From Nitrospirota bacterium (GTDB taxonomy: Bacteria > Nitrospirota > Thermodesulfovibrionia > Thermodesulfovibrionales > BMS3Bbin05), in assembly GCA_020351835.1 (NCBI GenBank), contig CP070669.1, forward strand, positions 102,782-166,781: 64,000 nucleotides of DNA, read 5' to 3'. The notes under the pieces are model-generated. The model had not been told where the DNA came from, made no database searches, and saw only the letters and a list, made by a program, of their open reading frames with translations. A program made the translations under genes and the position numbers. Shown here one piece after another: positions 7,304 to 20,165 of the stretch. The first letter of the stretch is position 1. Every line of letters starts with the position of its first letter.

Positions 7304-7909
7304 TTGCTGACCTTGTCGAAAAAACAAAGACCACTGCCTAAGCAACCAGGAACACCCTTTAAAGGAAAAGACCGCTTCGGATCAGAAAGGGACAGGGCTA
7401 CACTTATGGCCGATGAGATGGCAATGGCCATGGCAGAGGGCAGGCTTGAAGAGTTCATAGAGTCAGAGATCCCGGATAGTGAACATGCAAGAAAATTGCT
7501 CGAGATGATGATGGGCATGACCGGGATGTCACCTGTTTCAAAGAAAGTTCAAAAAAGCACGAAAAAAGGATCAGGTGTTAAAGTATCACACACGGAAGAC
7601 GACCCAATGAATATTGAAAACGCCTCATCCATGCCATCAAAAGAGATAATGGATGCCGTGAAGGACGGAAGTGTAGGCGATCTTGTTGATCTCTTAAGAA
7701 AGGAACACGACAAGAGGAACCCCGGCAGTTCAGAAGGAACGACTTCCAAACAGCCGCCGTTAAAGGACAAAGGCCTATCCGCGAAAGAAAGAACTATTAT
7801 CGATGAACTGATAAAGATATCCAAAGATAACAGTGTTTCACTTGACTGGATAACGTTGCGAGCACTTCAACATTACATCAAAGAATATAAGAAGACCGGC
7901 AAACTTTAA
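7304..7909 (+). CDS. Hypothetical charged protein
   Basis: Long ORF with an AGGAG upstream. The TTG at 7313 is better spaced from the SD than the TTG at 7304. No domain recognised. Confidence 0.5.
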   Translation: MLTLSKKQRPLPKQPGTPFKGKDRFGSERDRATLMADEMAMAMAEGRLEEFIESEIPDSEHARKLLEMMMGMTGMSPVSKKVQKSTKKGSGVKVSHTEDDPMNIENASSMPSKEIMDAVKDGSVGDLVDLLRKEHDKRNPGSSEGTTSKQPPLKDKGLSAKERTIIDELIKISKDNSVSLDWITLRALQHYIKEYKKTGKL

Positions 7910-8107
7910 TCATGACCTAACAGCTTTTGTAAAATTTCTCTTTATTGCCTCTGCAGAAAGAGGGATAGCCGGCAATGTCTTATTACCTTTTTTCGCGATT
8001 ATATGTATGAACTTAGGCCCCTTCTTTCTGGATCTCAGGGCCTTATTTATTTCATTCTTATCGCTAACCGTATGGATGTTCCTAAGTCCAAATCCACCAG
8101 CTACTGC
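7910..8107 (-). pseudogene. In-frame continuation (65 codons) of the decarboxylase gene beyond the TAA at 8108-8110
   Basis: The same frame after the TAA reads AVAGGFGLRNIHTVSDKNEINKALRSRKKGPKFIHIIAKKGNKTLPAIPLSAEAIKRNFTKAVRS, then TGA at 7910-7912. It has no start codon of its own. The joined length of 374 aa fits the family. Confidence 0.7.
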
Positions 8108-9034
8108 TTAAAGGTTGGCAACTCTATTAGCAGCCGTCGGCTGATCTCCTGTCGAGCTATATACACCGTTGTCGATAAGCACAATAGTGAGGTTCCGGGG
8201 CTTCTTTGCAGCTATGGTCGAAAGAGTCGAAGGGTTCATCAGCAGACTGCCATCTCCATCAATGACCATTACCTCTTTGCTGCATGAGATGGACAGGCCA
8301 AAACCGATCGGTGTAGCCATTCCCATGCTTCCGAGCATATAGAAATTTGAAGGTTGATCTAAAATATCATAGAGTTCTTTAGCGGGGAAACCAAGATTAC
8401 AAACAACAAGCTTGCCCCTAAGGTATCTTTTGATCTCGTTAATAATTTCATATCGGGTCATTCTCCCGGGATGGATACTATTTTCCCTCTTGTCCTTTAT
8501 ACTGAAGGCTCTCCTTTCGCTGATCAGCGGGATATTGATGTGAGATCCTTCCCATACCCTGGGACTCAGCAGAAAAGCATGAATAAGGTTCTTGCTATAG
8601 ACTTTTTGAAGTGGCCCCTTGATCTTATTGATCTCTTTCGCATTCTCGATATTCGTATAGCCTATCCCCGCAGCCTTGAGCAATCCTTCCACATGTTCTC
8701 CCATCGGTACCTGAGCCGCAATAGTTTCCTTATAAACACCTCTATGACTTAAAAAGATCGGCAACGGTAGTTTATAAAATGAGGTCAGGGACAAAAGCGC
8801 ATTTATCATGTTCCCGATGCCTGAGTTCTGCACGATCATCGCGGCTCTATTCCCGGCAAGGGCTACTCCTGCCGATATGCCCACACCGGCCTCCTCGCGC
8901 GACAATCCTACATGTTCAAACTCTGATCTGACAAGCATTATCAGGTTCTTTACCCTTTCGCAGGGCAAGGTAGCTACTACGTCCACACCGCTCTCTCTTA
9001 GAATGCTGACTAGCTCTTCTTCAGGTGATCGCAT
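8108..9034 (-). CDS. Sulfopyruvate/phosphonopyruvate-decarboxylase-like TPP enzyme (fused ComD/ComE-like), ended prematurely by an in-frame TAA
   Basis: N-terminal half is ComD-like (GVDVVATLPCERVKNL...GISAGVALAG). C-terminal half has the TPP motif GDGSLLMNPSTL...LIDNG. At 308 aa it is short for this family; see the extension at 7910-8107. Confidence 0.75.
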   Translation of the reverse strand: MRSPEEELVSILRESGVDVVATLPCERVKNLIMLVRSEFEHVGLSREEAGVGISAGVALAGNRAAMIVQNSGIGNMINALLSLTSFYKLPLPIFLSHRGVYKETIAAQVPMGEHVEGLLKAAGIGYTNIENAKEINKIKGPLQKVYSKNLIHAFLLSPRVWEGSHINIPLISERRAFSIKDKRENSIHPGRMTRYEIINEIKRYLRGKLVVCNLGFPAKELYDILDQPSNFYMLGSMGMATPIGFGLSISCSKEVMVIDGDGSLLMNPSTLSTIAAKKPRNLTIVLIDNGVYSSTGDQPTAANRVANL

Positions 9035-10266
9035 ATGATGCCCTCTATATTCTCATCAGATATGTACTTTGAAATGAATATCGGTTCAACAACATGCCTT
9101 CCCTTATCTTTCTTCAGCCTCACCTCCCCACCACCGGTGATGTTGAGCAATATCTTATCGTTCCTTTTTACTTTATCTTCTTTAGTTGCCCTTAAAAGTG
9201 CTGCAACAGCAACTCCTGACGCAGGAACTATGTCTATTCCTTCCGCCTTCTCAAAAAGGTCCATCGCCTCTATGACCTCATCGTTCTCTATTCCATACAT
9301 CATACCACCCGTAGACTTTAAAGCATCATATACCCCGCCCTGAACCGAATACGCAGGATATCTGTTAGATAGTACCCTTGTGGTTATCTCAGATATAAGT
9401 TCCGGTCTTAGGTCATTCGGGGAGAGCTCACTGCTTCGGGACTCCCATGCTTTGACCATCGGCGCAAAAGGAAGGTTCTGTGCCAGGTGTAACCTGGTCA
9501 TATGCGATCCGTACTTTCCTGTCCTTAGAACTCTCTCGGCCATCTCCCATACCCCGATAGCCCCCGTTCCGCTCCCCACTGCCTGAAAGTAATGATCAGG
9601 AAGTTGCCTCATCACAGAAACCGCCTCCAGAAGAACTGCTCCGAGCCCATCCCTTTTAGCTATATTTTTGACCCCACCTTCAAAAGGCATATCCATTATC
9701 CGGGCTATCCGCTTTGCCATATCGATAGAATCTGCATAATCCCCATCCTCAATAGCGATCGTCGGAATGGCCAGTGATGATTCCAGATACCACATCTCAA
9801 GAAGGCACATCTTCGGCACTACAATGATGACAGGAAATCCGGAAATTACCGAAAGATGGGAAAAGGCCCGTGCAGTATTTCCAGCTGATGCCACTATAAG
9901 ACCCTCGACACCATTTTCTTTTGCATTTTGAAGGACTGCCGCAGCCTCGAACTCCTTGAACGTACATGACTCTATCTTTCCTCCCCTCTCAGGCCAGTAA
10001 CCGTTGAAAGCTATATAAAGGTTTTCAAGCCCTGCCGATGACGCGAACCTCTCAGACCTGAACACAACAGGGCCTGGCTGTTTGAACAAAGGGTCATGTA
10101 CTGGCAACCAGTCAAATCTCCACAGCCCTTCCCTGTCAGACCTGAAAGGGTCTTCAGATGAATATTCGGTCACTAAAAGCGATCCGACACAGTGTTCACA
10201 GAAGGCGCAATATACCTCCTGTAGTTCCTTTCCGCATTTTCTGCACCTTATATTAAAATGGCTCAT
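9010..10266 (-). CDS. Threonine-synthase-family PLP enzyme, cysteate-synthase-like
   Basis: N-terminal Cys cluster CRKCGKELQEVYCAFCEHC, candidate PLP lysine in TFKEFEA, GSGTGAIG loop, 418 aa. Translationally overlapped (25 nt) with the decarboxylase gene. Confidence 0.55.
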   Translation of the reverse strand: MSHFNIRCRKCGKELQEVYCAFCEHCVGSLLVTEYSSEDPFRSDREGLWRFDWLPVHDPLFKQPGPVVFRSERFASSAGLENLYIAFNGYWPERGGKIESCTFKEFEAAAVLQNAKENGVEGLIVASAGNTARAFSHLSVISGFPVIIVVPKMCLLEMWYLESSLAIPTIAIEDGDYADSIDMAKRIARIMDMPFEGGVKNIAKRDGLGAVLLEAVSVMRQLPDHYFQAVGSGTGAIGVWEMAERVLRTGKYGSHMTRLHLAQNLPFAPMVKAWESRSSELSPNDLRPELISEITTRVLSNRYPAYSVQGGVYDALKSTGGMMYGIENDEVIEAMDLFEKAEGIDIVPASGVAVAALLRATKEDKVKRNDKILLNITGGGEVRLKKDKGRHVVEPIFISKYISDENIEGIICDHLKKS

Positions 10267-10287: not shown

Positions 10288-11490
10288 TCAAATGCATTCT
10301 GATATAAGCTCCATGATATCTACTATCGTTATCTGTTTTTTATGACCTTTCATTGCCTCGTTAACTTTCGCATAGCATGCAGGACAACTAAGTACAAGCC
10401 TGTCAGCACCTTTCTCCACAGCCTCGTCTATTGTTAGCCTGCCCATTGCGATCGCGTTCTCATGGAATATCTTCCTGGCCGCCCCTCCCGCCCCGCAACA
10501 CCTGGAATTTCTCCCGTGTGCATCAAATTCAATAAGTTCTGCTCCATCAATATGCCTTAATACCTCTCTCGGCTCTTCTATTACACCAACACCTCTGCTT
10601 AAGTAGCATGGGTCATGGTATATGATCTTCTCTTTAAGTCCTTTGCTTAACTTCAATCTCCCTTCTTCCAATGCTTTTTTAACATACTGAGAGATGTGTA
10701 CTATCCTGAACGGCAGTTCACTTCCGTAAAAGATAGGCCAATCTCTGGACATAATGTTCACGCAGCAGGGGCAGGAACAGACAAGTTCCCTCACACCCTT
10801 TTCAGCGTAAGCACTAACAAGTTTATTGGTAAGCTCCTCAAGCATTTCATGCTGCCCAGTTATAAAGAGCGGAAAGCCGCAACATACCTCTTTATCCGCA
10901 GAAAGCATTGTGAACGGTTCACCTATAGCATCAAGAACTAAAACATCGCTCCTTACCATCGGATGAGCTTCATAAGCCCCTGTGCAGCCTGCATAGTATG
11001 CGATCTCGCTTTGCTCAGCTATCTTTATTTCATCAGGGAACCATGTCTTGAACCTTTCTTCAGCAGGTTCGTTATACGGATTTCCGGTGTCAGAAATTGC
11101 CTTCTGCATTTCACGCTGAGCACCGAAGGGGCCGATACCTCTTTTTACCATCTCCCTTCTTAAAGCCGGCCACAGCCTCTGGGTATCAAGTCCTACAGGA
11201 CATATCTCGCCACAGGCACCACAAGTTGTACACTCAAACACCGCCTCGGCAAAATCCTTAAGCAGCTTTTCATCAATATCTTTTTTGCCGAATATCCTTG
11301 CTTTCAGGCTATCAGTACTGTCAATGAACTCCTTATAGATCTTAATTTTCTCAGGTGTTGAGATGTCGGCATTTCCTGTTACCATCTGCACAGGGCAATG
11401 CTTCAAACACTCCCTGCAATCCGTGCAGCCCTTTATCTCCATGACCTGCTTTTTCGAGAGGTCTTTTATGAAAGATCTTTTATTCTTCAT
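10288..11490 (-). CDS. HdrD/DsrK-like iron-sulfur protein (2x[4Fe-4S] ferredoxin motifs plus two CCG domains)
   Basis: CTDCRECLKHCP and CTTCGACGEICP motifs. CCG motifs: VCCGFP...CSCPCC and RCCGAGG...SCPAC. Confidence 0.85.
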   Translation of the reverse strand: MKNKRSFIKDLSKKQVMEIKGCTDCRECLKHCPVQMVTGNADISTPEKIKIYKEFIDSTDSLKARIFGKKDIDEKLLKDFAEAVFECTTCGACGEICPVGLDTQRLWPALRREMVKRGIGPFGAQREMQKAISDTGNPYNEPAEERFKTWFPDEIKIAEQSEIAYYAGCTGAYEAHPMVRSDVLVLDAIGEPFTMLSADKEVCCGFPLFITGQHEMLEELTNKLVSAYAEKGVRELVCSCPCCVNIMSRDWPIFYGSELPFRIVHISQYVKKALEEGRLKLSKGLKEKIIYHDPCYLSRGVGVIEEPREVLRHIDGAELIEFDAHGRNSRCCGAGGAARKIFHENAIAMGRLTIDEAVEKGADRLVLSCPACYAKVNEAMKGHKKQITIVDIMELISECI

Positions 11491-12202
11491 GTCCCAAAGG
11501 TACGAACGTATCGTCCCGTTCTCTCGCTTCGATCATTACTATGGGGGCTGCGAGTATATGAGATGGGAGGAACAGTAAGAGCACAAGAAATAGAATATAG
11601 TGCAATAAGAACACGGGATCAAGCGGCAAAGGATTAGGATCGAATGCAAGAACTCCAAGTACGTAATGCTTGATGTCGATCACATCGGGCCTCACAAAAT
11701 ACCTCATTATCACTCCTGTTGCTCCCAAAATGAATATAACCGATACCAGAACAAGGTTGCGTACAGAGAAATACTCTCCTTTTTCGCTGATGACCAGACG
11801 AACTATAAGTATGTATAAGAGAGACAATGGAAGCACATATCCTGCATGCTTTCCTATGCAGTTAAGCTCCATTACTATCCCGGGAACAGGTTGCATAATA
11901 TACCTTAAGTGACCTAGCAATACGAGCGCAAAGGAAACATGAAAGACCCACTCTCCTATCCATAAAGCACGATTCACTCTTAACAGCCTTCTGAATAAAA
12001 TAATATCAAGTATCGCATTTAACAATATCTTCGCTTTCTTAACACGGCTCTTTGCCAGTGGTCGATAATGCGGTTCAGAATGGCCGCATACAAGTACTAT
12101 TGCAGAAATGCCTCTCCAGTAAGCAACAGCAAGAATCCCATAAGTTATTCCCGTTACCAGTATCTCCATAGCTTTACTATAGCACGTAGATCCGTCCGCC
12201 AT
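11480..12202 (-). CDS. NarI/DsrM/HdrE-like integral membrane (putative cytochrome b) subunit
   Basis: 240 aa with about 5 hydrophobic helices carrying conserved-looking His residues (HVSFALVLLGHLRY, LLHYILF, PSHIL). There is an 11-nt overlap with the HdrD/DsrK-like gene. Confidence 0.7.
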   Translation of the reverse strand: MADGSTCYSKAMEILVTGITYGILAVAYWRGISAIVLVCGHSEPHYRPLAKSRVKKAKILLNAILDIILFRRLLRVNRALWIGEWVFHVSFALVLLGHLRYIMQPVPGIVMELNCIGKHAGYVLPLSLLYILIVRLVISEKGEYFSVRNLVLVSVIFILGATGVIMRYFVRPDVIDIKHYVLGVLAFDPNPLPLDPVFLLHYILFLVLLLFLPSHILAAPIVMIEARERDDTFVPLGHEE

Positions 12203-12226
12203 TGACAGATCTTGAGCATCGATCGG

Positions 12227-12553
12227 TCAGTCCCTGCTATCATCCGATATAAATTCGATAGATACTTTCCTGGGAACGGCAAGTCCAGCCTCGACCTCGA
12301 GCGCTTTAAGGATGCCTGCCGGTACCGGGCAGGACACATGCTTCAAGCAGTTAGAGCCCGCTGAATAGACAGGATTATCAAGGATCCTTTTGAAGGCATC
12401 CATGAAGGCCAGTTCAGGCAGTTCCTTACCAAGCTTTTCGACCATCTCGCAGTCAGAGGTTATTTTTAGATCGAAAACCTTGTCCTCTTTCCTGGTGACC
12501 TCTATCTCGGTCAGCAGGCCACATGCTCCCGGATCTATTTTTATCTTTGTCAT
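12227..12553 (-). CDS. Small Cys-containing hypothetical protein
   Basis: 108 aa with four Cys (GACG, SDCE, SNCLKHVSCP). Embedded between the activase gene and the membrane redox genes. Family not recognised. Confidence 0.6.
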   Translation of the reverse strand: MTKIKIDPGACGLLTEIEVTRKEDKVFDLKITSDCEMVEKLGKELPELAFMDAFKRILDNPVYSAGSNCLKHVSCPVPAGILKALEVEAGLAVPRKVSIEFISDDSRD

Positions 12554-12608: not shown

Positions 12609-14585
12609 CTACCCCTTAACCGTCACCTGAGCATTGCTCTTTTCAAGCATGTTCTTCAGGTTAGGGAAGTTGTCCTTCATGTGGGGTATATGCATCGCCA
12701 TCATGAACTCCTTTTCGAACTCCGGTTCAATAGCTATCTCCACAAAGTTCACCCATCGGGCCTTTTCCTTGGCCTCCAGCCTCTTCGCCCTGCTCAGCAA
12801 GGTCATTATGGCTCCGTCCCCGGCCGCGTTACCCACGGCGTATACTTTCTCAATATCACAGTCAGGGAACATCCCCAGCGTTAACGCCGATCTTGTATCT
12901 ATATGGCTGCCGAACGCACCTGCCAGTACAACCCGGTCAAGTGTCGTTATACCGAGCTTTTTCATCATAAGCTTTGCTCCGGCATAAAGGGCTCCCTTTG
13001 CGAGCTGAAGTGCACGCACATCTCCCTGGGTTACCGTAATATCCGCTCCGATCGATGTCTCATCAGCCCATGCAAGTACGTATTCAGGTTTGCCGTCTGC
13101 ATCCAGTCTTACCCTGGGTGTATCCAGATCCTTCACTATCTTGCCGGATTTGTCTATTATTCCTGCTTTGAACATTTCGGCGATAACATCGATTATCGCT
13201 GATCCGCATATTCCCTTCGCATCGATCTTCTCTATATGGGTATGCCAGTCCGCCTTTCCTATCACCTTGTATCTGGGCTCCTTTGTGTCCGGATCTATCT
13301 CTACTGTTTCTATCGCTCCGGGTGCAGCTCGCATTCCGAACTTTATCTGTGCTCCTTCGAACGCCGGGCCTGTAGCACAAGATGTTGAGTATACCCCGTT
13401 CCTGTTCCCGAGAAGGAGCTCACCGTTAGTTCCAATATCGATTATCAGGACCATATCATCTACGTTATAAGGTTCTTCAGCAATAAGCACACCTACATTA
13501 TCAGCGCCAACGAAACCCGCCTCTATAGGAAGCACATGCACATAGGAAGCGGGATTTATATTTATATTAATATCGCGCGCCTTAATGTCCATCGGGTCCT
13601 GCACGGCCGGAATAAATGGTGACCTTCCTATATACACCGGGTTAAAACCAAGGAATATATGGTGCATTGCGGTATTGAAAACGACGGTCATGTCCACTAT
13701 CTGGTGTCCTCCGTCCGACCCGTCTATCTTAATCTCTGAGGTTATCTTGTCGATTATTTCGTTCAATCCTCCGATTATCGCTTTCTGCATTGTCTCAAGA
13801 CCGTCACTGTTCATCATCGCGTATGTTATCCGGGACATGACATCTTCACCATATGGTACCTGAGGGTTCATCATGGACTCGGTATTAAGCACCTTGCCCG
13901 TAACAAGGTCGCATAGATAAGCTGCAACTGTTGTCGTGCCGACATCAATAGCGATACCATATGTATTCTCAATGAATCCAGGTTCAACCTTTATTATTTC
14001 CCTGCCTTCCCTGACTGTCACGGTACACTTCCATTCACCTTTGCGCAGAGCATCCTGAAGGTCCTTTTGTACCACATAATCTATGATGATCCCCTCTAAT
14101 CCGTATTGCTCCTTTAAGAGTTCTCTGATCCTTTCATAATCTCCCTTTGAGAGATCATGGAGTGTCGGGGGCTCCATCTCTATGAAATATTTCCTCACGG
14201 AAGGATCTATAGGAATGGTTATATCTTTTGCCGCTTTTCTTACGATCTGCTTTCCCGCCCGTGATTTCTCGGGAACAAATAGCTTCACATCTCCATGAAC
14301 GGTAGCAGCACACGCAAGCCTCATCTGAGGCCCTTCCTCAGATTTTATGAACTTTTTTTCAACTTCCGATAATTCGCTCAGATGCGACATCCTGGAGTCC
14401 ATTGCGTCCTTCTCAAAGTATCCTTCCTCTACCCTGACCTTGCATTTCCCGCATGTACCCTTTCCGCCGCAGATGGATTCAAGGTCAACGCCAAGACCCT
14501 GTGCTGCCTCAAGAAGCGTCTTGTTCTCCTCTATTTCACCCCTGCTTCCAGAGGGTTGAAAGTTCACTTTATATTTCTTGCTCAT
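12609..14585 (-). CDS. Corrinoid reductive activase (RamA/AcsV-type: [2Fe-2S] ferredoxin plus ASKHA ATPase)
   Basis: N-terminal plant-type ferredoxin motif CGGKGTCGKCKV...LACA. Actin-fold phosphate motifs GIAIDVGTTT and IDIGTNGE. 658 aa. Confidence 0.85.
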   Translation of the reverse strand: MSKKYKVNFQPSGSRGEIEENKTLLEAAQGLGVDLESICGGKGTCGKCKVRVEEGYFEKDAMDSRMSHLSELSEVEKKFIKSEEGPQMRLACAATVHGDVKLFVPEKSRAGKQIVRKAAKDITIPIDPSVRKYFIEMEPPTLHDLSKGDYERIRELLKEQYGLEGIIIDYVVQKDLQDALRKGEWKCTVTVREGREIIKVEPGFIENTYGIAIDVGTTTVAAYLCDLVTGKVLNTESMMNPQVPYGEDVMSRITYAMMNSDGLETMQKAIIGGLNEIIDKITSEIKIDGSDGGHQIVDMTVVFNTAMHHIFLGFNPVYIGRSPFIPAVQDPMDIKARDINININPASYVHVLPIEAGFVGADNVGVLIAEEPYNVDDMVLIIDIGTNGELLLGNRNGVYSTSCATGPAFEGAQIKFGMRAAPGAIETVEIDPDTKEPRYKVIGKADWHTHIEKIDAKGICGSAIIDVIAEMFKAGIIDKSGKIVKDLDTPRVRLDADGKPEYVLAWADETSIGADITVTQGDVRALQLAKGALYAGAKLMMKKLGITTLDRVVLAGAFGSHIDTRSALTLGMFPDCDIEKVYAVGNAAGDGAIMTLLSRAKRLEAKEKARWVNFVEIAIEPEFEKEFMMAMHIPHMKDNFPNLKNMLEKSNAQVTVKG

Positions 14586-14621
14586 TCAGCATCCTCCATT
14601 GAATTGATCGAATATTTGATC

Positions 14622-15281
14622 TTATGTCGCAACCGACCGTTGTCTCCTTTCATTGCCGTTCCTGCCGTAAGGGCAGATGTTTATACATAACCCGCAATTC
14701 GGCTTGTCATTCACCGCTTTAGAGTTCTCCTTATACGACCTGCATCGTTCTGTCATTATAAGTTCCGGAAAAGGCTCTTTCCTGGACCATGTATCACCTG
14801 TGATAGCCTTTGATGGGCAGTGCTCAACACAAAGCCTGCAATTACCGCAAAGGCTCTCCCTTATAGGTTCATCGGCCTTAAGAGGCGCATCTGTCAGTAC
14901 CGTCGCTAATGAGAGCCTCGGACCAAATCTTTCACTGATGAGAAGTCCGTTCCTGCCTATCCACCCCAGTCCGGCACAGGTTGCCGCCACTTTATGAGTA
15001 AAAAGCGGGTACAACTTCGATTGGAACTTATCCTTGATCCTGTCCGAATCCGGAGGAATACAAAAGTATCTGTGTCCCATGTCCTTAATATAAGATGCGG
15101 CAACTTTTTGGATAATGCCGATCTTTTCCAGTGTGTTCTCTTTAAGGTTACCTTTGATCCCTATAGAAATAGCCTTTCCAAGATGACTGATGTCCTCTTC
15201 GAGAGCCTCTTCAACAACGGCAAAGCCTACTATAGTGGCCCCTTCATCCAGCAGTATCTTTCGAAGGTCCTCGCCGATCAC
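14622..15281 (-). CDS. Short QueG/RdhA-family protein with 2x[4Fe-4S]
   Basis: GLGWIGRNGLLISERFGPRLSLATVLTD, followed by CGNCRLCVEHCP and CGLCINICP. Only 219 aa. There is a 4-nt overlap with the corrinoid protein gene. Confidence 0.7.
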   Translation of the reverse strand: MIGEDLRKILLDEGATIVGFAVVEEALEEDISHLGKAISIGIKGNLKENTLEKIGIIQKVAASYIKDMGHRYFCIPPDSDRIKDKFQSKLYPLFTHKVAATCAGLGWIGRNGLLISERFGPRLSLATVLTDAPLKADEPIRESLCGNCRLCVEHCPSKAITGDTWSRKEPFPELIMTERCRSYKENSKAVNDKPNCGLCINICPYGRNGNERRQRSVAT

Positions 15282-15970
15282 TCCTTGTTCTTTCCTTCTG
15301 CATCATCTTTCATCTCTTTGAGGGAACCTATCATCTTGATAGCATCAGAAAGCGCGTTAGTAGCATCATCCGCATACCCGTCCGCTCCCCATTTCTCTGC
15401 AATATCCTTTGATACCGGGGCACCACCTATCATTATTTTCACGTTCGGGTTCTTTGCCTTGAGGTTATCAATTACCTTCTGCATTCCCACCATGGTAGTT
15501 GTCATCATGGCAGACAAACATACGAGTTCCGAATCCGTCTTTATCTGTTCTTCAACGAACTGGTCAAGAGGGACATCACGCCCAAGGTCATATACCTCAA
15601 ATCCCGCGACATCGAACATCATCTTCACAATGTTCTTGCCTATGTCGTGCACATCTCCCTCGACCGTCCCTATCACCACTGACCCTTTAACCCCCAGGTC
15701 AAGCTGCTCAACGTGAGGCTTAAGTATATCCAGGCCGGCATAAAGTGCGTCCGCGCACATTAAAAGCTCCGGGACAAAGTATTCCTGAGCCTCGAACAAC
15801 TTCCCTACCTCCTGCATACCTACTACAAGTCCATCGAAAATGGCATCATTGGCATTTATACCTTCATCCAGGACCTCTTGTGCCCCCTCCTTGGCGGTAT
15901 CTTCATCATATTCTATGACCGCCTGCTTCAGCTTCTCCAGAAGCTCCTTCTTTCTCTCTTCTGTCGCCAT
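15278..15970 (-). CDS. Methyltransferase cognate corrinoid protein (B12-binding)
   Basis: Helical cap domain followed by GTVEGDVHDIGKNIV (DxHxxG), LSAMMTTT and IMIGGAP. 230 aa. Confidence 0.92.
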   Translation of the reverse strand: MATEERKKELLEKLKQAVIEYDEDTAKEGAQEVLDEGINANDAIFDGLVVGMQEVGKLFEAQEYFVPELLMCADALYAGLDILKPHVEQLDLGVKGSVVIGTVEGDVHDIGKNIVKMMFDVAGFEVYDLGRDVPLDQFVEEQIKTDSELVCLSAMMTTTMVGMQKVIDNLKAKNPNVKIMIGGAPVSKDIAEKWGADGYADDATNALSDAIKMIGSLKEMKDDAEGKNKE

Positions 15971-15973
15971 TTC

Positions 15974-17008
15974 TTACCTCCTGTGTTCTTTTACTGTGTC
16001 TATCATTGCTTTAAAATTCTCGGGCGGTACTGTAGGCCAGATATCGCATCCGGGCCATACCGCGCTAACTCCGTCATCTATACATTTTGTGATAGCTTCC
16101 CTTATGAGGTCAGGTGTCCCTGCAACGAGCACATTATAGGGATCAAAGTTCCCGAACACTAAAGCATCATTTCCAAGCTTCTTTCTGGTCTCCGTAATAT
16201 CGTTCTTTTGGTCAACACTAATGGCGTCTGCCCCCGACTCCATCATGAACCCTACGATATCATTTGTCTTACCGCACACATGAACCACGGATGGGACATT
16301 AAGCTCTTTGATGATATTTTGCAGGTGGGGCAGGATCAGGTTCTTGAAGACCCGGGGACTCAGGACATCGGATGTCGCTCCCATCTCCCTTACCGTAATG
16401 AAATCTATCCCCGCATCTTCATATACCTTAGCTACCTTAACTATAACTCCTGACAATATTTCAAGGAGCTTTCCCACCTTATCAGCTTTCTTAAAAGATA
16501 GTTTCAGCAGGTCATTAAGCTCCATTATCTGTCCGGCCAGGGTAAAAGGTCCAAGCACATATGAACCTACCGGTATCTCACCCCCGGCCTCCTTTTTAGC
16601 TATTCCTATTGCCTCGTGCATCAGGGGAACCCTGCCCCTCCCGACCAGGTCTTCAGGAACTGATATCTCCATCTCATCTTCGTTCTTTATCACCTTCTCC
16701 TTAATGGTCGGATAAAGAAGGTCCTCGGAGTGAGGATAGGTGTTGATAACCGCCCCAAGTGCTTCAGCTTCTACACACAGATCGAACGGGAGCACACATG
16801 AATCAAATCCGAACAACTTCGGCGTAGTCACCGCCGTCTCAGCCATCTGCTTAGCGTCGAGATGGACCTGGGCAAACTTATATCCCAACTCGTCGAGACC
16901 GGTAGTAGTAACATTTCCCATACCGCTGAAACAGGGTACCCTGTCGGTCTCCTCTTTCTTGAATAGCCTGGTTACTCTGTCTTTAGAGCTCATCTCAGAT
17001 ACAGACAT
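15974..17008 (-). CDS. Uroporphyrinogen-decarboxylase-family methyltransferase (MtaA/MtbA/MtsA-like)
   Basis: 344 aa. Candidate Zn ligands VVHVCGKT (HxC) and VWPGCDIWP (C), as in methylcobamide:thiol methyltransferases. Confidence 0.85.
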   Translation of the reverse strand: MSVSEMSSKDRVTRLFKKEETDRVPCFSGMGNVTTTGLDELGYKFAQVHLDAKQMAETAVTTPKLFGFDSCVLPFDLCVEAEALGAVINTYPHSEDLLYPTIKEKVIKNEDEMEISVPEDLVGRGRVPLMHEAIGIAKKEAGGEIPVGSYVLGPFTLAGQIMELNDLLKLSFKKADKVGKLLEILSGVIVKVAKVYEDAGIDFITVREMGATSDVLSPRVFKNLILPHLQNIIKELNVPSVVHVCGKTNDIVGFMMESGADAISVDQKNDITETRKKLGNDALVFGNFDPYNVLVAGTPDLIREAITKCIDDGVSAVWPGCDIWPTVPPENFKAMIDTVKEHRR

Positions 17009-17064
17009 TATTCATCTCCTTTCAATCATAATTAATGGTATACCTATCGTAAATTTGTTCCTTT

Positions 17065-18027
17065 TTATTTCTTTGCTTTCTTCCTTCCTCCGCCTTCTTC
17101 CAGCTTCTGTATGAACTCGGCAAACAGCTTTCTGATCGGCAGGTCTTCGTTCCCGGGTATCATTCCGGTCTCATCATATATAAAAGTAGACAACAGAGTA
17201 TGGGCAGTAGCCACTGCAGGGAAGATCCTCGAAGCCGTTACAATGGGCCCGTAGAAGTTAAAATCGCTCCATATGGCCGACGCCATTCCCTGAGCTACCG
17301 CATCCATGGCCCTGAAACCGTCGAGTCCCCATATCTCCCTGGCCTCTTTCCACATATGTGTGCCATTAGAGTATGCCCCCCCGCACGGCAGCCCATGCTT
17401 TTCCTTTATTATCCTGTTAGCTATCAACGAGAATGATGTCGACGGCAGGTTCATCACCGAGGTATCTACGATCACCGTATCAAAGCCATCTGCGCCCTGG
17501 GAATAGATCGATTCGAACGAGCTTAACCTTCCTGCAGGTGACTGGTCCTGGTCGTCGAACGCCTGAATAACGACATGTTTTATTCCGAGGTCCTTCAGCC
17601 GCTGGACCTGACCTTTGATGTCCTTATCCCATGGAGTAATGCTGTTATAAAGGAACTTGTCCTGTACTCCAAGCTTTGCGACATACTCTGTTGCCTTAGC
17701 CCTTTTCTCTGCTACCCACATGTCTATCCCAAAGGGCATCTCTGTCGTCTCGAGAAAGAAATCTATATAAACCTGTGCTTCCTCAGGTGTATTAGCAACC
17801 ATTGCGACCATACCGGGGATCCCGGTAGACCGGTTGAGCTCTTCCTGCTTTCTTATAAGCTCTGCTGCTCTCTTGCGGTCGAACTTGCCCGACTTTCTGT
17901 CATCAAGGATCCTGTCCTTATTATGGAACATGGACGCGATCATTAAAGGCGGGTTTTCCCCGGGTCTTCCCCCGACCTTGATCCCTGCTATATCAAAAAC
18001 CTTCTGCTCTGACTTTAAATTGAACAT
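17065..18027 (-). CDS. MtrH-like methyl-pterin:corrinoid methyltransferase
   Basis: N-terminus MFNLKSEQKVFDIAGIKVGGRPGENPPLMIASMFH closely parallels archaeal MtrH (MFKFDKKQEVFEIGGVKFGGQPGEYP...). 320 aa. Confidence 0.85.
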   Translation of the reverse strand: MFNLKSEQKVFDIAGIKVGGRPGENPPLMIASMFHNKDRILDDRKSGKFDRKRAAELIRKQEELNRSTGIPGMVAMVANTPEEAQVYIDFFLETTEMPFGIDMWVAEKRAKATEYVAKLGVQDKFLYNSITPWDKDIKGQVQRLKDLGIKHVVIQAFDDQDQSPAGRLSSFESIYSQGADGFDTVIVDTSVMNLPSTSFSLIANRIIKEKHGLPCGGAYSNGTHMWKEAREIWGLDGFRAMDAVAQGMASAIWSDFNFYGPIVTASRIFPAVATAHTLLSTFIYDETGMIPGNEDLPIRKLFAEFIQKLEEGGGRKKAKK

Positions 18028-18062
18028 CTATGCTCCTTTCAAGAAATGATGATGAGTTCTCT

Positions 18063-18093
18063 TATCAAATAAAGAGTCCTGCAAGGGCAGGAC
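18063..18093 (-). terminator. Intra-operon intrinsic terminator candidate
   Basis: Minus-strand RNA reads GUCCUGC-CCUU-GCAGGAC followed by UCUUUAUUUGAUA. Located between the AhpD-like gene and the mtrH-like gene. Confidence 0.5.
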
Positions 18094-18110
18094 GATCATT
18101 CGCCCTGCCC
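18085..18110 (-). promoter_or_regulatory. Alternative (antiterminator-like) hairpin overlapping the terminator 5' arm
   Basis: Minus-strand RNA reads GGGCAGG-N12-CCUGCCC. Its 3' arm shares 18085-18093 with the terminator stem, so the two folds are mutually exclusive. Confidence 0.4.
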
Positions 18111-18126
18111 TCACAGTTAAGGTCTA

Positions 18127-18642
18127 TCAGTAAACGCCGTGATCGAACTTTGTTTCGGGTAGATATTCCCAATCCTCTCCATTACGGTATTTCGCCTCAA
18201 TATCGAGACACTTCAGCGCGTACTCGAACGCATACGGAATGCCTGGTCCGCCCGGAACAAAGCCGGCCAGTATCATTCCTACTGCAGCCGCTTCAAAGAT
18301 CTCTCCGGTCGTAGCTCCCGCGTCTATAGCCGGAATAACGTGGATGATACACCTCGGTGAGCAGTATGCAACGCCTCCGGACATGAACATCAGCTCCTTT
18401 ACCTTCTTTGAGAGCGCACCGTCGCCGAAGATGCTCTCATAGAAATCAGCGAACGTCTTTCCGGGGACAGGTGTTACAGTGTTGATGATCTTGAACATGC
18501 GAGGTACAAAACCGCAATGTTCCTTCATGTACGCATTGACTTCATCTACCGACATCTTTGATGCATCTGACATAAGCTCCTCCTTCATTTCATTTCCCGG
18601 CTCACCGGCCAGAAATTTCTTAATGCTTTCAAAAATACCCAT
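18127..18642 (-). CDS. Carboxymuconolactone-decarboxylase/AhpD-like family protein
   Basis: AYCSPRCIIHV, a CxxxCxxH variant of the AhpD CxxCxxxH core. The ORF opens with GTG at 18648, but ATG at 18642 sits 5 nt after a perfect GGGAGG. Confidence 0.7.
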   Translation of the reverse strand: MGIFESIKKFLAGEPGNEMKEELMSDASKMSVDEVNAYMKEHCGFVPRMFKIINTVTPVPGKTFADFYESIFGDGALSKKVKELMFMSGGVAYCSPRCIIHVIPAIDAGATTGEIFEAAAVGMILAGFVPGGPGIPYAFEYALKCLDIEAKYRNGEDWEYLPETKFDHGVY

Positions 18643-18728
18643 TGTCACCTCCCTTTACGGGAACTTAAGCTACCTGCCTCACCTCCTCTCATATACAAAC
18701 ACACATAATATTTGGATTTCGTTCCTCT

Positions 18729-19757
18729 TTATAGCTTCCACTCTGTTGCAATCTGAATGAACTTCTGAATGTTCTCATAAGGAACCGTTGGCGGGATGTC
18801 GCATCCCGGCATAAGAACAAAAGCACCATCGGTACCGGCTGTTTCTATTATTTTTTTGCATGAGCTCTCAACATCGCTTGCACTTCCCTGCAGCATTATC
18901 TGTACAGGATCTACGTTGCCGCCAAAACATATTTTGCCGTGCAATACTTCTTTAGCCTTTGCTATATCGGTCTTGTGATCAAGACTGATGCAACTGGCAC
19001 CAGTGTCAGGGAAAAGCTCAAGCCTGTCAGTAGTATTCCCGCAAATATGCAAAAGAGTATGTGCGTTCTTCGATTTGGCCCAGTCTGTGAACTTCTTGAG
19101 GGCTGGCACAGCGAACTGCTCGAACTGTTTTTTGGAGATAAGATCACCCGAAGCGGTCGGGTCTGCAAGGCTTATCACCTCAAGCGTTCCGTCGCTGACT
19201 ATGGGTTCGTAAAGATGGATAAGGAGATCACATGCAAAATCAACTATCTTCTCGACGAGAGCCGGTTTCTTGAACGTAGCCTTCATCATGGCCTCTTCAC
19301 CGACAAACCGGGCACCAAGTGTAAAAGGTCCCCACGCAGTGAGGGTAACGATATATTTATCGCCTATCTCCTTTTTTGTTCTCCGCAATGCCTCTTTTGT
19401 AGTATTAATGGTCTCGTCTTTATCAATATCTTCAATATTAAGACCATCTATCTCTTCTTCTGAACTTATGAGATGATCTTCGAGATCAGGGGCACCTACC
19501 TCCCGGAACTTGATCTTTCCTCCAAGAGCTGAGGCATGAAAATTGTTGTATCCCGACCCTGCATAAACGATATCGCACTTCAGCCTCTCACTGTTCTCTA
19601 CGAGCACTTTTGTCATCTTGCCGGCATCCTTTGAGATCTCTTCAAAGGTAGTCCCTGAGCTGTTAATGCTCCACATGCCTCCGCCAAAAAGAGTTACCGG
19701 TACCCTTTCAGGCTTGCCCCCTTCATAAGCCTTTAGAATTATTTCCCTCGGTGTCAT
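18729..19757 (-). CDS. Uroporphyrinogen-decarboxylase-family methyltransferase (MtaA/MtsA-like), paralogue 2
   Basis: 342 aa. LLHICGNT (HxC) and LMPGCDIPP (C) are candidate Zn ligands. Strong SD (GGAGGAG). Confidence 0.85.
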   Translation of the reverse strand: MTPREIILKAYEGGKPERVPVTLFGGGMWSINSSGTTFEEISKDAGKMTKVLVENSERLKCDIVYAGSGYNNFHASALGGKIKFREVGAPDLEDHLISSEEEIDGLNIEDIDKDETINTTKEALRRTKKEIGDKYIVTLTAWGPFTLGARFVGEEAMMKATFKKPALVEKIVDFACDLLIHLYEPIVSDGTLEVISLADPTASGDLISKKQFEQFAVPALKKFTDWAKSKNAHTLLHICGNTTDRLELFPDTGASCISLDHKTDIAKAKEVLHGKICFGGNVDPVQIMLQGSASDVESSCKKIIETAGTDGAFVLMPGCDIPPTVPYENIQKFIQIATEWKL

Positions 19758-19769
19758 ATACTCCTCCTT

Positions 19770-20135
19770 TCAAATAAGAACAGAACTTCTGTTTCGAATT
19801 ATTTCTTTGAACATTGCCAGGAAACTGTCTATCTCTTTGGGAGATCCTGTGACATATACTCCATCTTTTAGCCTGGTCTTTTCCGATACGCTATCTGTCA
19901 AAAGAAATATCGGGGCAGATGAGATCGTATCCTTCATTATTGAAGCAGCCTCATACGCATTAAGTCCTATATTCCTTGTGTCGAGTATTACTGCGTCGTA
20001 CCTGTTTGCAAGAAACTCTCTTACTGCATCTGATATATATTCGATAGTAACAACCTCTATACCCCCGTCCCGGATAGGACCATACAGCTCCTTTATAAGC
20101 AACGGTTCCTGAGAGCACAGAAGGATCCTTTTCAT
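19770..20135 (-). CDS. Stand-alone receiver-like (CheY-fold) protein, degenerate
   Basis: 121 aa. AVILDTR retains an acceptor-like Asp, but the N-terminal acidic pair and the usual MP motif are missing. Confidence 0.6.
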   Translation of the reverse strand: MKRILLCSQEPLLIKELYGPIRDGGIEVVTIEYISDAVREFLANRYDAVILDTRNIGLNAYEAASIMKDTISSAPIFLLTDSVSEKTRLKDGVYVTGSPKEIDSFLAMFKEIIRNRSSVLI

Positions 20136-20149
20136 CGCAGGAAATTAAG

Positions 20150-20165
20150 AGCAACTTCAATGCCA
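20150..20165 (-). promoter_or_regulatory. Sigma-54 (-24/-12) promoter
   Basis: Minus strand reads TGGCAT-TGAAG-TTGCT, with exact GG-N10-GC spacing. It is the only full match I found by eye on either strand. It is intergenic, directly upstream of the 13-gene operon. Confidence 0.6.

Follow-up and report, generated by a model that had tools for sequence, protein, structure and literature searches.

A single-base in-frame stop interrupts a fused comDE gene next to cysteate synthase in a Nitrospirota genome assembly

The comDE locus and its operon

The 64,000-nucleotide stretch of a Nitrospirota genome that was analyzed here (the window) contains, according to the translation of its open reading frames, a minus-strand frame of 374 codons (9034–7913) that is broken by an in-frame TAA (Table 1). 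Its ATG opens 308 codons ending in ...TGDQPTAANRVANL, and past the TAA the same phase continues for 65 sense codons (AVAGGFGLRNIHTV...FTKAVRS) up to a TGA, which brings the total to 374 residues. The initial annotation had regarded these 65 codons as the C-terminus of the family, lacking a start codon of their own. The first part of this proposal is upheld by a match of the tail alone to the end of the TIGR03846 profile (Table 1). The second part applies to the first 44 codons of the tail, which are free of starts and are followed at tail codon 45 by a TTG, the sole canonical start in this segment. Codon usage scores 0.40 bits per codon in frame, with −1.2 and −1.8 for the two alternative frames. 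Given the profile match and the in-frame codon usage, the tail is not a chance open frame.

Table 1. Features of the interrupted comDE locus (window coordinates) and of further genes in the assembly with a single nonsense codon (genome coordinates).
Feature	Position	Strand	Supporting observation
Convergent gene abutting the comDE stop, 201-aa ORF (198 aa called in sister strain)	7304..7909	+	Same layout in sister strain
Natural comDE stop, TGA	7910..7912	-	Homologues end at same alignment column
comDE codons 310-374, C-terminal third of PP domain, untranslated as the sequence stands	7913..8107	-	TIGR03846 119-182, E = 2.8e-11
TAA, codon 309; changed base is window 8109	8108..8110	-	TCA (Ser) in sister strain
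comDE codons 1-308: PYR (alpha-like) domain, linker, first two thirds of PP (beta-like) domain including GDG...N ThDP/Mg motif	8111..9034	-	TIGR03845, TPP_enzyme_N, TPP_enzyme_C, TIGR03846 1-116
Cysteate synthase, 418 aa, intact	9010..10266	-	TIGR03844 468 bits, cut-off 325
purL, large type, ~1,312 aa, sole copy: TGA	genome ~1943146	-	Arg (once Ser) in aligned relatives; 12/12 read through
prmC/hemK (release-factor glutamine methyltransferase): TGA just past SAM-binding TGSG	genome 822439	+	12/12 relatives uninterrupted
DHH-CBS-poly(A)-polymerase/CCA-type gene, ~915 aa: TAA	genome 1976781	+	Tyr/Phe/Leu/Ile in relatives; Pfam domain spans stop
BlaR1-type M56 peptidase: TAA	genome ~1904212	-	Pfam domain spans stop
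GAF protein: TGA			Domain spans stop
DUF2301 protein: TAG			Domain spans stop

Both Pfam domains, TPP_enzyme_N and TPP_enzyme_C, are found in the part before the stop, and the match to TIGR03845, the model for the alpha part of sulfopyruvate decarboxylase, lies above the cut-off (185.2 bits versus 147.95). The beta model TIGR03846 is divided by the stop, with profile positions 1–116 before and 119–182 after it. The joined product covers this profile completely (positions 1–182 of 182) and reaches 232.1 bits at a cut-off of 221.5, whereas the 308-residue product as encoded fails with 174.5 bits. The ThDP motifs, with the catalytic Glu of the PYR domain in R46-E47-E48 and the GDG...N of the PP domain in G260-D261-G262 and D288-N289, are all present upstream of the stop and invariant in 41 sequences. 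Judged by these profile and motif matches, the gene is a predicted ordinary fused ComDE-type, thiamine-diphosphate-dependent sulfopyruvate decarboxylase. An identity as phosphonopyruvate decarboxylase was rejected, as the read-through product scores 204.5 bits against TIGR03297 and thus stays below the cut-off of 312.5. A second comDE copy was not found in the genome.

The gene resembles the fused ComDE of Methanosarcinales and Methanomicrobiales in its two-domain ThDP architecture, in passing both NCBIfam equivalog models when read through, and in having cysteate synthase as adjoining partner. In Methanosarcina acetivorans, for example, the fused ComDE MA3298 adjoins the cysteate synthase MA3297 (PMC11844431, PMC4045070). 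In contrast to these archaeal systems, the host is bacterial, no COG1900/MMP16 protein was found, the present copy carries a nonsense codon, and the operon adds corrinoid methyltransferase and CCG/HdrD-like genes. By analogy with the characterized archaeal enzymes, the cysteate synthase and ComDE pair would make cysteate and then, after transamination, sulfoacetaldehyde. The nearest solved structure is the split alpha/beta phosphonopyruvate decarboxylase (PDB 9iz3/9iz4). The 9iz3 beta chain aligns to ComDE residues 201–369 (E = 3.5e-23) and the alpha chain to residues 1–133. Unlike that enzyme, the present one remains below the TIGR03297 cut-off and is encoded beside a cysteate synthase, with no PEP mutase as neighbor.

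The cysteate synthase gene overlaps the comDE start by 25 nt, and comDE is translationally coupled to it. Both genes occur in the same 13 of 30 relatives from the same order, always adjacent to each other, and neither occurs in the other 17; the cysteate synthase is the predicted functional partner of ComDE. The operon runs in the order UroD-type methyltransferase, corrinoid protein, Fe-S protein, RACo activase, DUF6951, membrane subunit, CCG protein, cysteate synthase and comDE. This order is kept in the contigs of three relatives, in which comDE is always last and encodes 372–386 aa. The description of comDE as the last operon gene, already given in the initial annotation, is thus confirmed, with the convergent gene directly abutting its stop. 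Since comDE is last and a convergent gene comes next, no downstream polar effect of the TAA is expected. The remainder of the operon (window 10288–12553 and 12609–20165, minus strand) includes the CCG (HdrD/DsrK/TfrB-like) protein, a DsrM/NarI-like membrane subunit and UroD-type methyltransferases.

A COG1900/MMP16 coenzyme M synthase was not found in the present genome, which is 96.9% complete, and the end product of the pathway hence need not be coenzyme M. The neighboring CCG protein was considered as a candidate for ComF and rejected, because ComF/MMP16 is a COG1900 protein (PMC11844431). A preprint on mlp methyltransferase clusters (PMC10418091) makes no mention of the sulfonate genes described here. 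The genome encodes tmRNA and tRNA-Sec (the latter at genome position 213268), and the nearest named comDE homologues come from Nitrospirota/Thermodesulfovibrionales MAGs, from which it follows that the host is a bacterium and not a methanogen. As a separate observation, the genome contains likely selenoproteins with TGA at the catalytic Cys, i.e. a peroxiredoxin (FTFV-U-ATE), an RtcB RNA ligase (GYDIN-U-GVR) and a GrdB-family protein (genome 1107868, 2104466 and 1806843, plus strand).

Homologues and the ancestral codon

All 119 homologues continue past the stop column and share their end with the joined frame. Not one of them terminates near residue 308, in line with the earlier view that the TAA splits a full-length family member, and the joined length of 374 aa, which had been called usual for the family, fits homologues that reach the same last alignment column (median 435, as for the joined frame). 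With a tail that matches the C-terminus of the family and no homologue terminating around residue 308, a naturally shorter family followed by 65 unrelated codons does not describe the data. Alignment of the joined product to the homologues, as had been suggested, places mostly Glu (84) or Ser (28) at the stop column, besides Ala (4) and one case each of Thr, Gly and Gln. Likewise, the gene has no internal stop in any of the 13 relatives that possess comDE.

The 90%-identity cluster of the 308-residue product holds one other member, a 374-aa protein from assembly GCA_975955985.1. The corresponding contig of this sister strain aligns over 8,298 bp to window positions 14187–5890 with 99.06% identity and no gaps, and codon 309 reads TCA (Ser) there versus TAA here. 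The stop is therefore explained by a single base substitution, which is C to A when read on the coding strand and G to T on the plus strand. Both nearest outgroup orthologues also have Ser at codon 309, which indicates that the stop is derived in the present genome.

Within comDE, the other differences from the sister strain amount to nine synonymous and two missense changes, none of them in the 65 tail codons. Across the entire 8.3 kb, 58 synonymous, 20 non-synonymous and 2 intergenic differences were counted (44 transitions, 34 transversions). This pattern is that of real divergence under purifying selection, and it shows that comDE either is still functional or lost its function very recently. 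A search for decay of the tail gave no significant result: the ratio of tail to N-terminal identity was 0.74, which ranks 12th of 120, while homologue pairs give 0.80 ± 0.12. Similarly, no excess of derived amino-acid changes was seen in the present genome (3 versus 2, with 5 unresolved). The substitution G220R in cysteate synthase was considered as a second lesion and rejected, since three relatives carry Arg or Lys at this site.

Consequences of the truncation for the enzyme

An AlphaFold2 model of the intact allele was obtained from a 41-sequence alignment (pLDDT 88.6, pTM 0.90). In this model, the tail forms a helix (308–314), a strand (319–323), a helix (326–334), a strand (341–346) and a final helix (361–373), all at pLDDT 92–95. 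The loss of the tail would thus remove three helices and two of the six strands that form the PP-domain sheet, along with six invariant and eight nearly invariant family residues. The stop maps to about residue 117 of the 186-residue 9iz3 beta chain. The model and the alignment to 9iz3_B place the lost tail within the ordered core of the PP domain. A 308-residue product is most likely unstable and inactive; the predicted inactivity follows from a domain that would lack a third of its core, though the GDG...N motif is kept.

Conceivably, the split might be natural, with the 308-residue protein acting as a functional short form or the tail being supplied as a subunit of its own. Some archaea do have ComD and ComE as two distinct subunits, and in PDB 9iz3 the phosphonopyruvate decarboxylase is likewise split. 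The known alpha/beta boundary, however, lies about 115 residues upstream of the stop, so that the cut observed here would fall inside the beta domain. None of the 119 homologues ends at this point, and the first start in the tail is the TTG discussed above. Moreover, such a split would place six invariant residues and two core strands outside the first product, and the same species has a fused, intact gene. A natural split is hence the least likely of all the readings considered here.

Recoding and read-through

The initial annotation had offered a recent nonsense mutation, an assembly or sequencing error, and low-level read-through as causes. The first two can now be narrowed to a private single-base change from TCA to TAA, while read-through and recoding have become very unlikely. 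TAA ends 599 of 1,784 long open frames and is consequently a normal stop in the present genome. Among the 34 tRNAs that were detected, an incomplete set, none other than tRNA-Sec would read a stop codon. An alternative genetic code or a suppressor was rejected on these two grounds. The RNA downstream of the TAA is no more stably folded than shuffled controls (z = −1.0). A stop at codon 309 is conserved in 0 of the 119 homologues and 0 of the 13 relatives, and it is absent from the sister strain. With an ordinary sense codon in the sister strain, nothing programmed is conserved. Taken with the stop usage, the detected tRNAs and the RNA fold, this excludes programmed recoding for practical purposes.

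A different possibility is that the TAA exists but terminates leakily or is suppressed genome-wide, and that read-through, perhaps aided by a broken prmC, supplies enough full-length enzyme. PrmC methylates release factors, and prmC itself contains an in-frame TGA in this assembly (Table 1). Several other genes with single stops also look otherwise intact, which speaks for this reading. This idea has to contend with the normal use of TAA in this genome, with the failure to find a suppressor among the detected tRNAs of the incomplete set, with the unremarkable RNA fold and with the sense codon of the sister strain. In addition, UAA followed by G belongs to the least leaky terminators. A leaky stop thus appears highly improbable. 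A broader version, in which all nonsense codons are real and tolerated since loss of PrmC weakens termination genome-wide, would make the organism a natural lineage with raised read-through; it is slightly less credible still.

Real mutation or consensus error

Two explanations thus have to be weighed in earnest, a real nonsense mutation and a consensus base error. In the latter case, the cells would carry TCA and an intact gene, and the TAA would exist in the draft assembly only. The quality of the assembly bears directly on this question. The 2.29-Mb "single contig" consists of some 129 pieces that are linked by spacers of 100 N, with a median piece of 13 kb, and this draft MAG character speaks for an error. 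The window, on the other hand, is part of one 64.6-kb piece with the TAA 8.5 kb from its end, and a site deep inside a long contig speaks against one. A crude gene model gives 86.7% coding sequence, with genes of 301 codons on average. Nearly all of the ten strongest frameshift candidates turned out to be ordinary adjacent genes, leaving at most two or three unexplained breaks. With its normal coding density and gene length, its few frameshifts and no indels in the 8.3 kb shared with the sister strain, the assembly is not generally noisy. One frame stands apart as an observation of its own: a J-domain-like ORF (genome 945982–946551, plus strand) has good coding statistics, yet its first 112 codons contain no ATG, GTG or TTG. 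Its sequence is partly shared, in a different frame, with the end of a ParA/MinD-like gene, and it may represent a frameshift, a fusion or an unusual start.

At least six further conserved genes with a single nonsense codon were found among about 2,200 genes (Table 1). The screens for interrupted genes require 12–30 start-free codons past the break and catch about 20–50% of cases, for which reason all such counts are lower bounds. When the other truncated products were looked up by exact match, only singletons were retrieved, all from the present genome, and a homology search for a sister copy of PurL gave a best identity of no more than 74%.

These additional cases can be read in both directions. 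In favor of an error, at least seven conserved genes carry one nonsense codon each, with all three kinds of stop represented, and two of them, purL and prmC, are housekeeping genes that are intact in 12 of 12 relatives, so that a real knockout would be surprising. Almost no frameshifts accompany them; the interruptions are nearly all substitutions, and such a pattern, poor in indels, is typical of short-read miscalls. The comDE tail is identical to that of the sister strain and the operon shows no other lesion, although an undecayed tail fits a very recent mutation just as well as an error.

In favor of a real mutation, short-read consensus error normally yields fewer than seven nonsense codons in 2.3 Mb and is usually far too rare to account for the number seen here. 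By contrast, strains that differ by about 1% would be expected to show roughly as many nonsense codons as the seven or more counted here in about 2,200 genes. Relative to the sister strain, the differences are overwhelmingly synonymous and show no excess of changes derived in the present genome, and a base-change signature common to the nonsense codons was not detected. A mutator phenotype due to defective 8-oxoG repair was considered as a source of the stops and rejected: no MutY above the cut-off and no Fpg was found in any of 13 genomes, and there is thus no defect specific to this genome.

Taken together, we favor a real, very young and strain-private nonsense allele that abolishes function, at a probability of roughly 55%. 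This preference derives from the count of at least seven nonsense codons, which fits a strain divergence of about 1% and exceeds the usual short-read consensus error. It draws further support from sequence comparison, in that an independent assembly has the intact 374-aa allele and the stop is derived. A consensus base error is a serious contender, albeit at below even odds. If the allele is real, a single C-to-A transversion would have turned the TCA (Ser) of codon 309 into TAA in the lineage of the present assembly alone, and the TAA would be present in the DNA of the cells. The lesion would be young, because the 65 tail codons show no differences from the sister strain. Translation would then end at residue 308 and the enzyme would be lost, leaving this strain without sulfoacetaldehyde by the ComDE route.

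Conclusions

Either cause, a young allele or a base error, is ordinary, and neither involves a new coding mechanism or new enzymology. The case resembles an ordinary bacterial nonsense pseudogene or strain-private polymorphism: one substitution step separates the two alleles, a strain with 99% identity retains the intact one, the gene has not decayed further, and the genome harbors several similar cases; nothing sets comDE apart from these. The annotated 308-aa protein should accordingly not be read as a natural short ComDE.

More interesting than the stop is the location of cysteate synthase and ComDE within a corrinoid methyltransferase and CCG cluster. Since a 99%-identical strain has the pair intact and under purifying selection, the cysteate synthase/ComDE pair is to be counted as intact for the species, and the stop is no evidence that the pathway is absent. 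The species as a whole keeps comDE under purifying selection. If the nonsense allele is real, the strain represented by the present assembly would depend on its neighbors for whatever sulfonate cofactor the methyltransferase/CCG operon uses.
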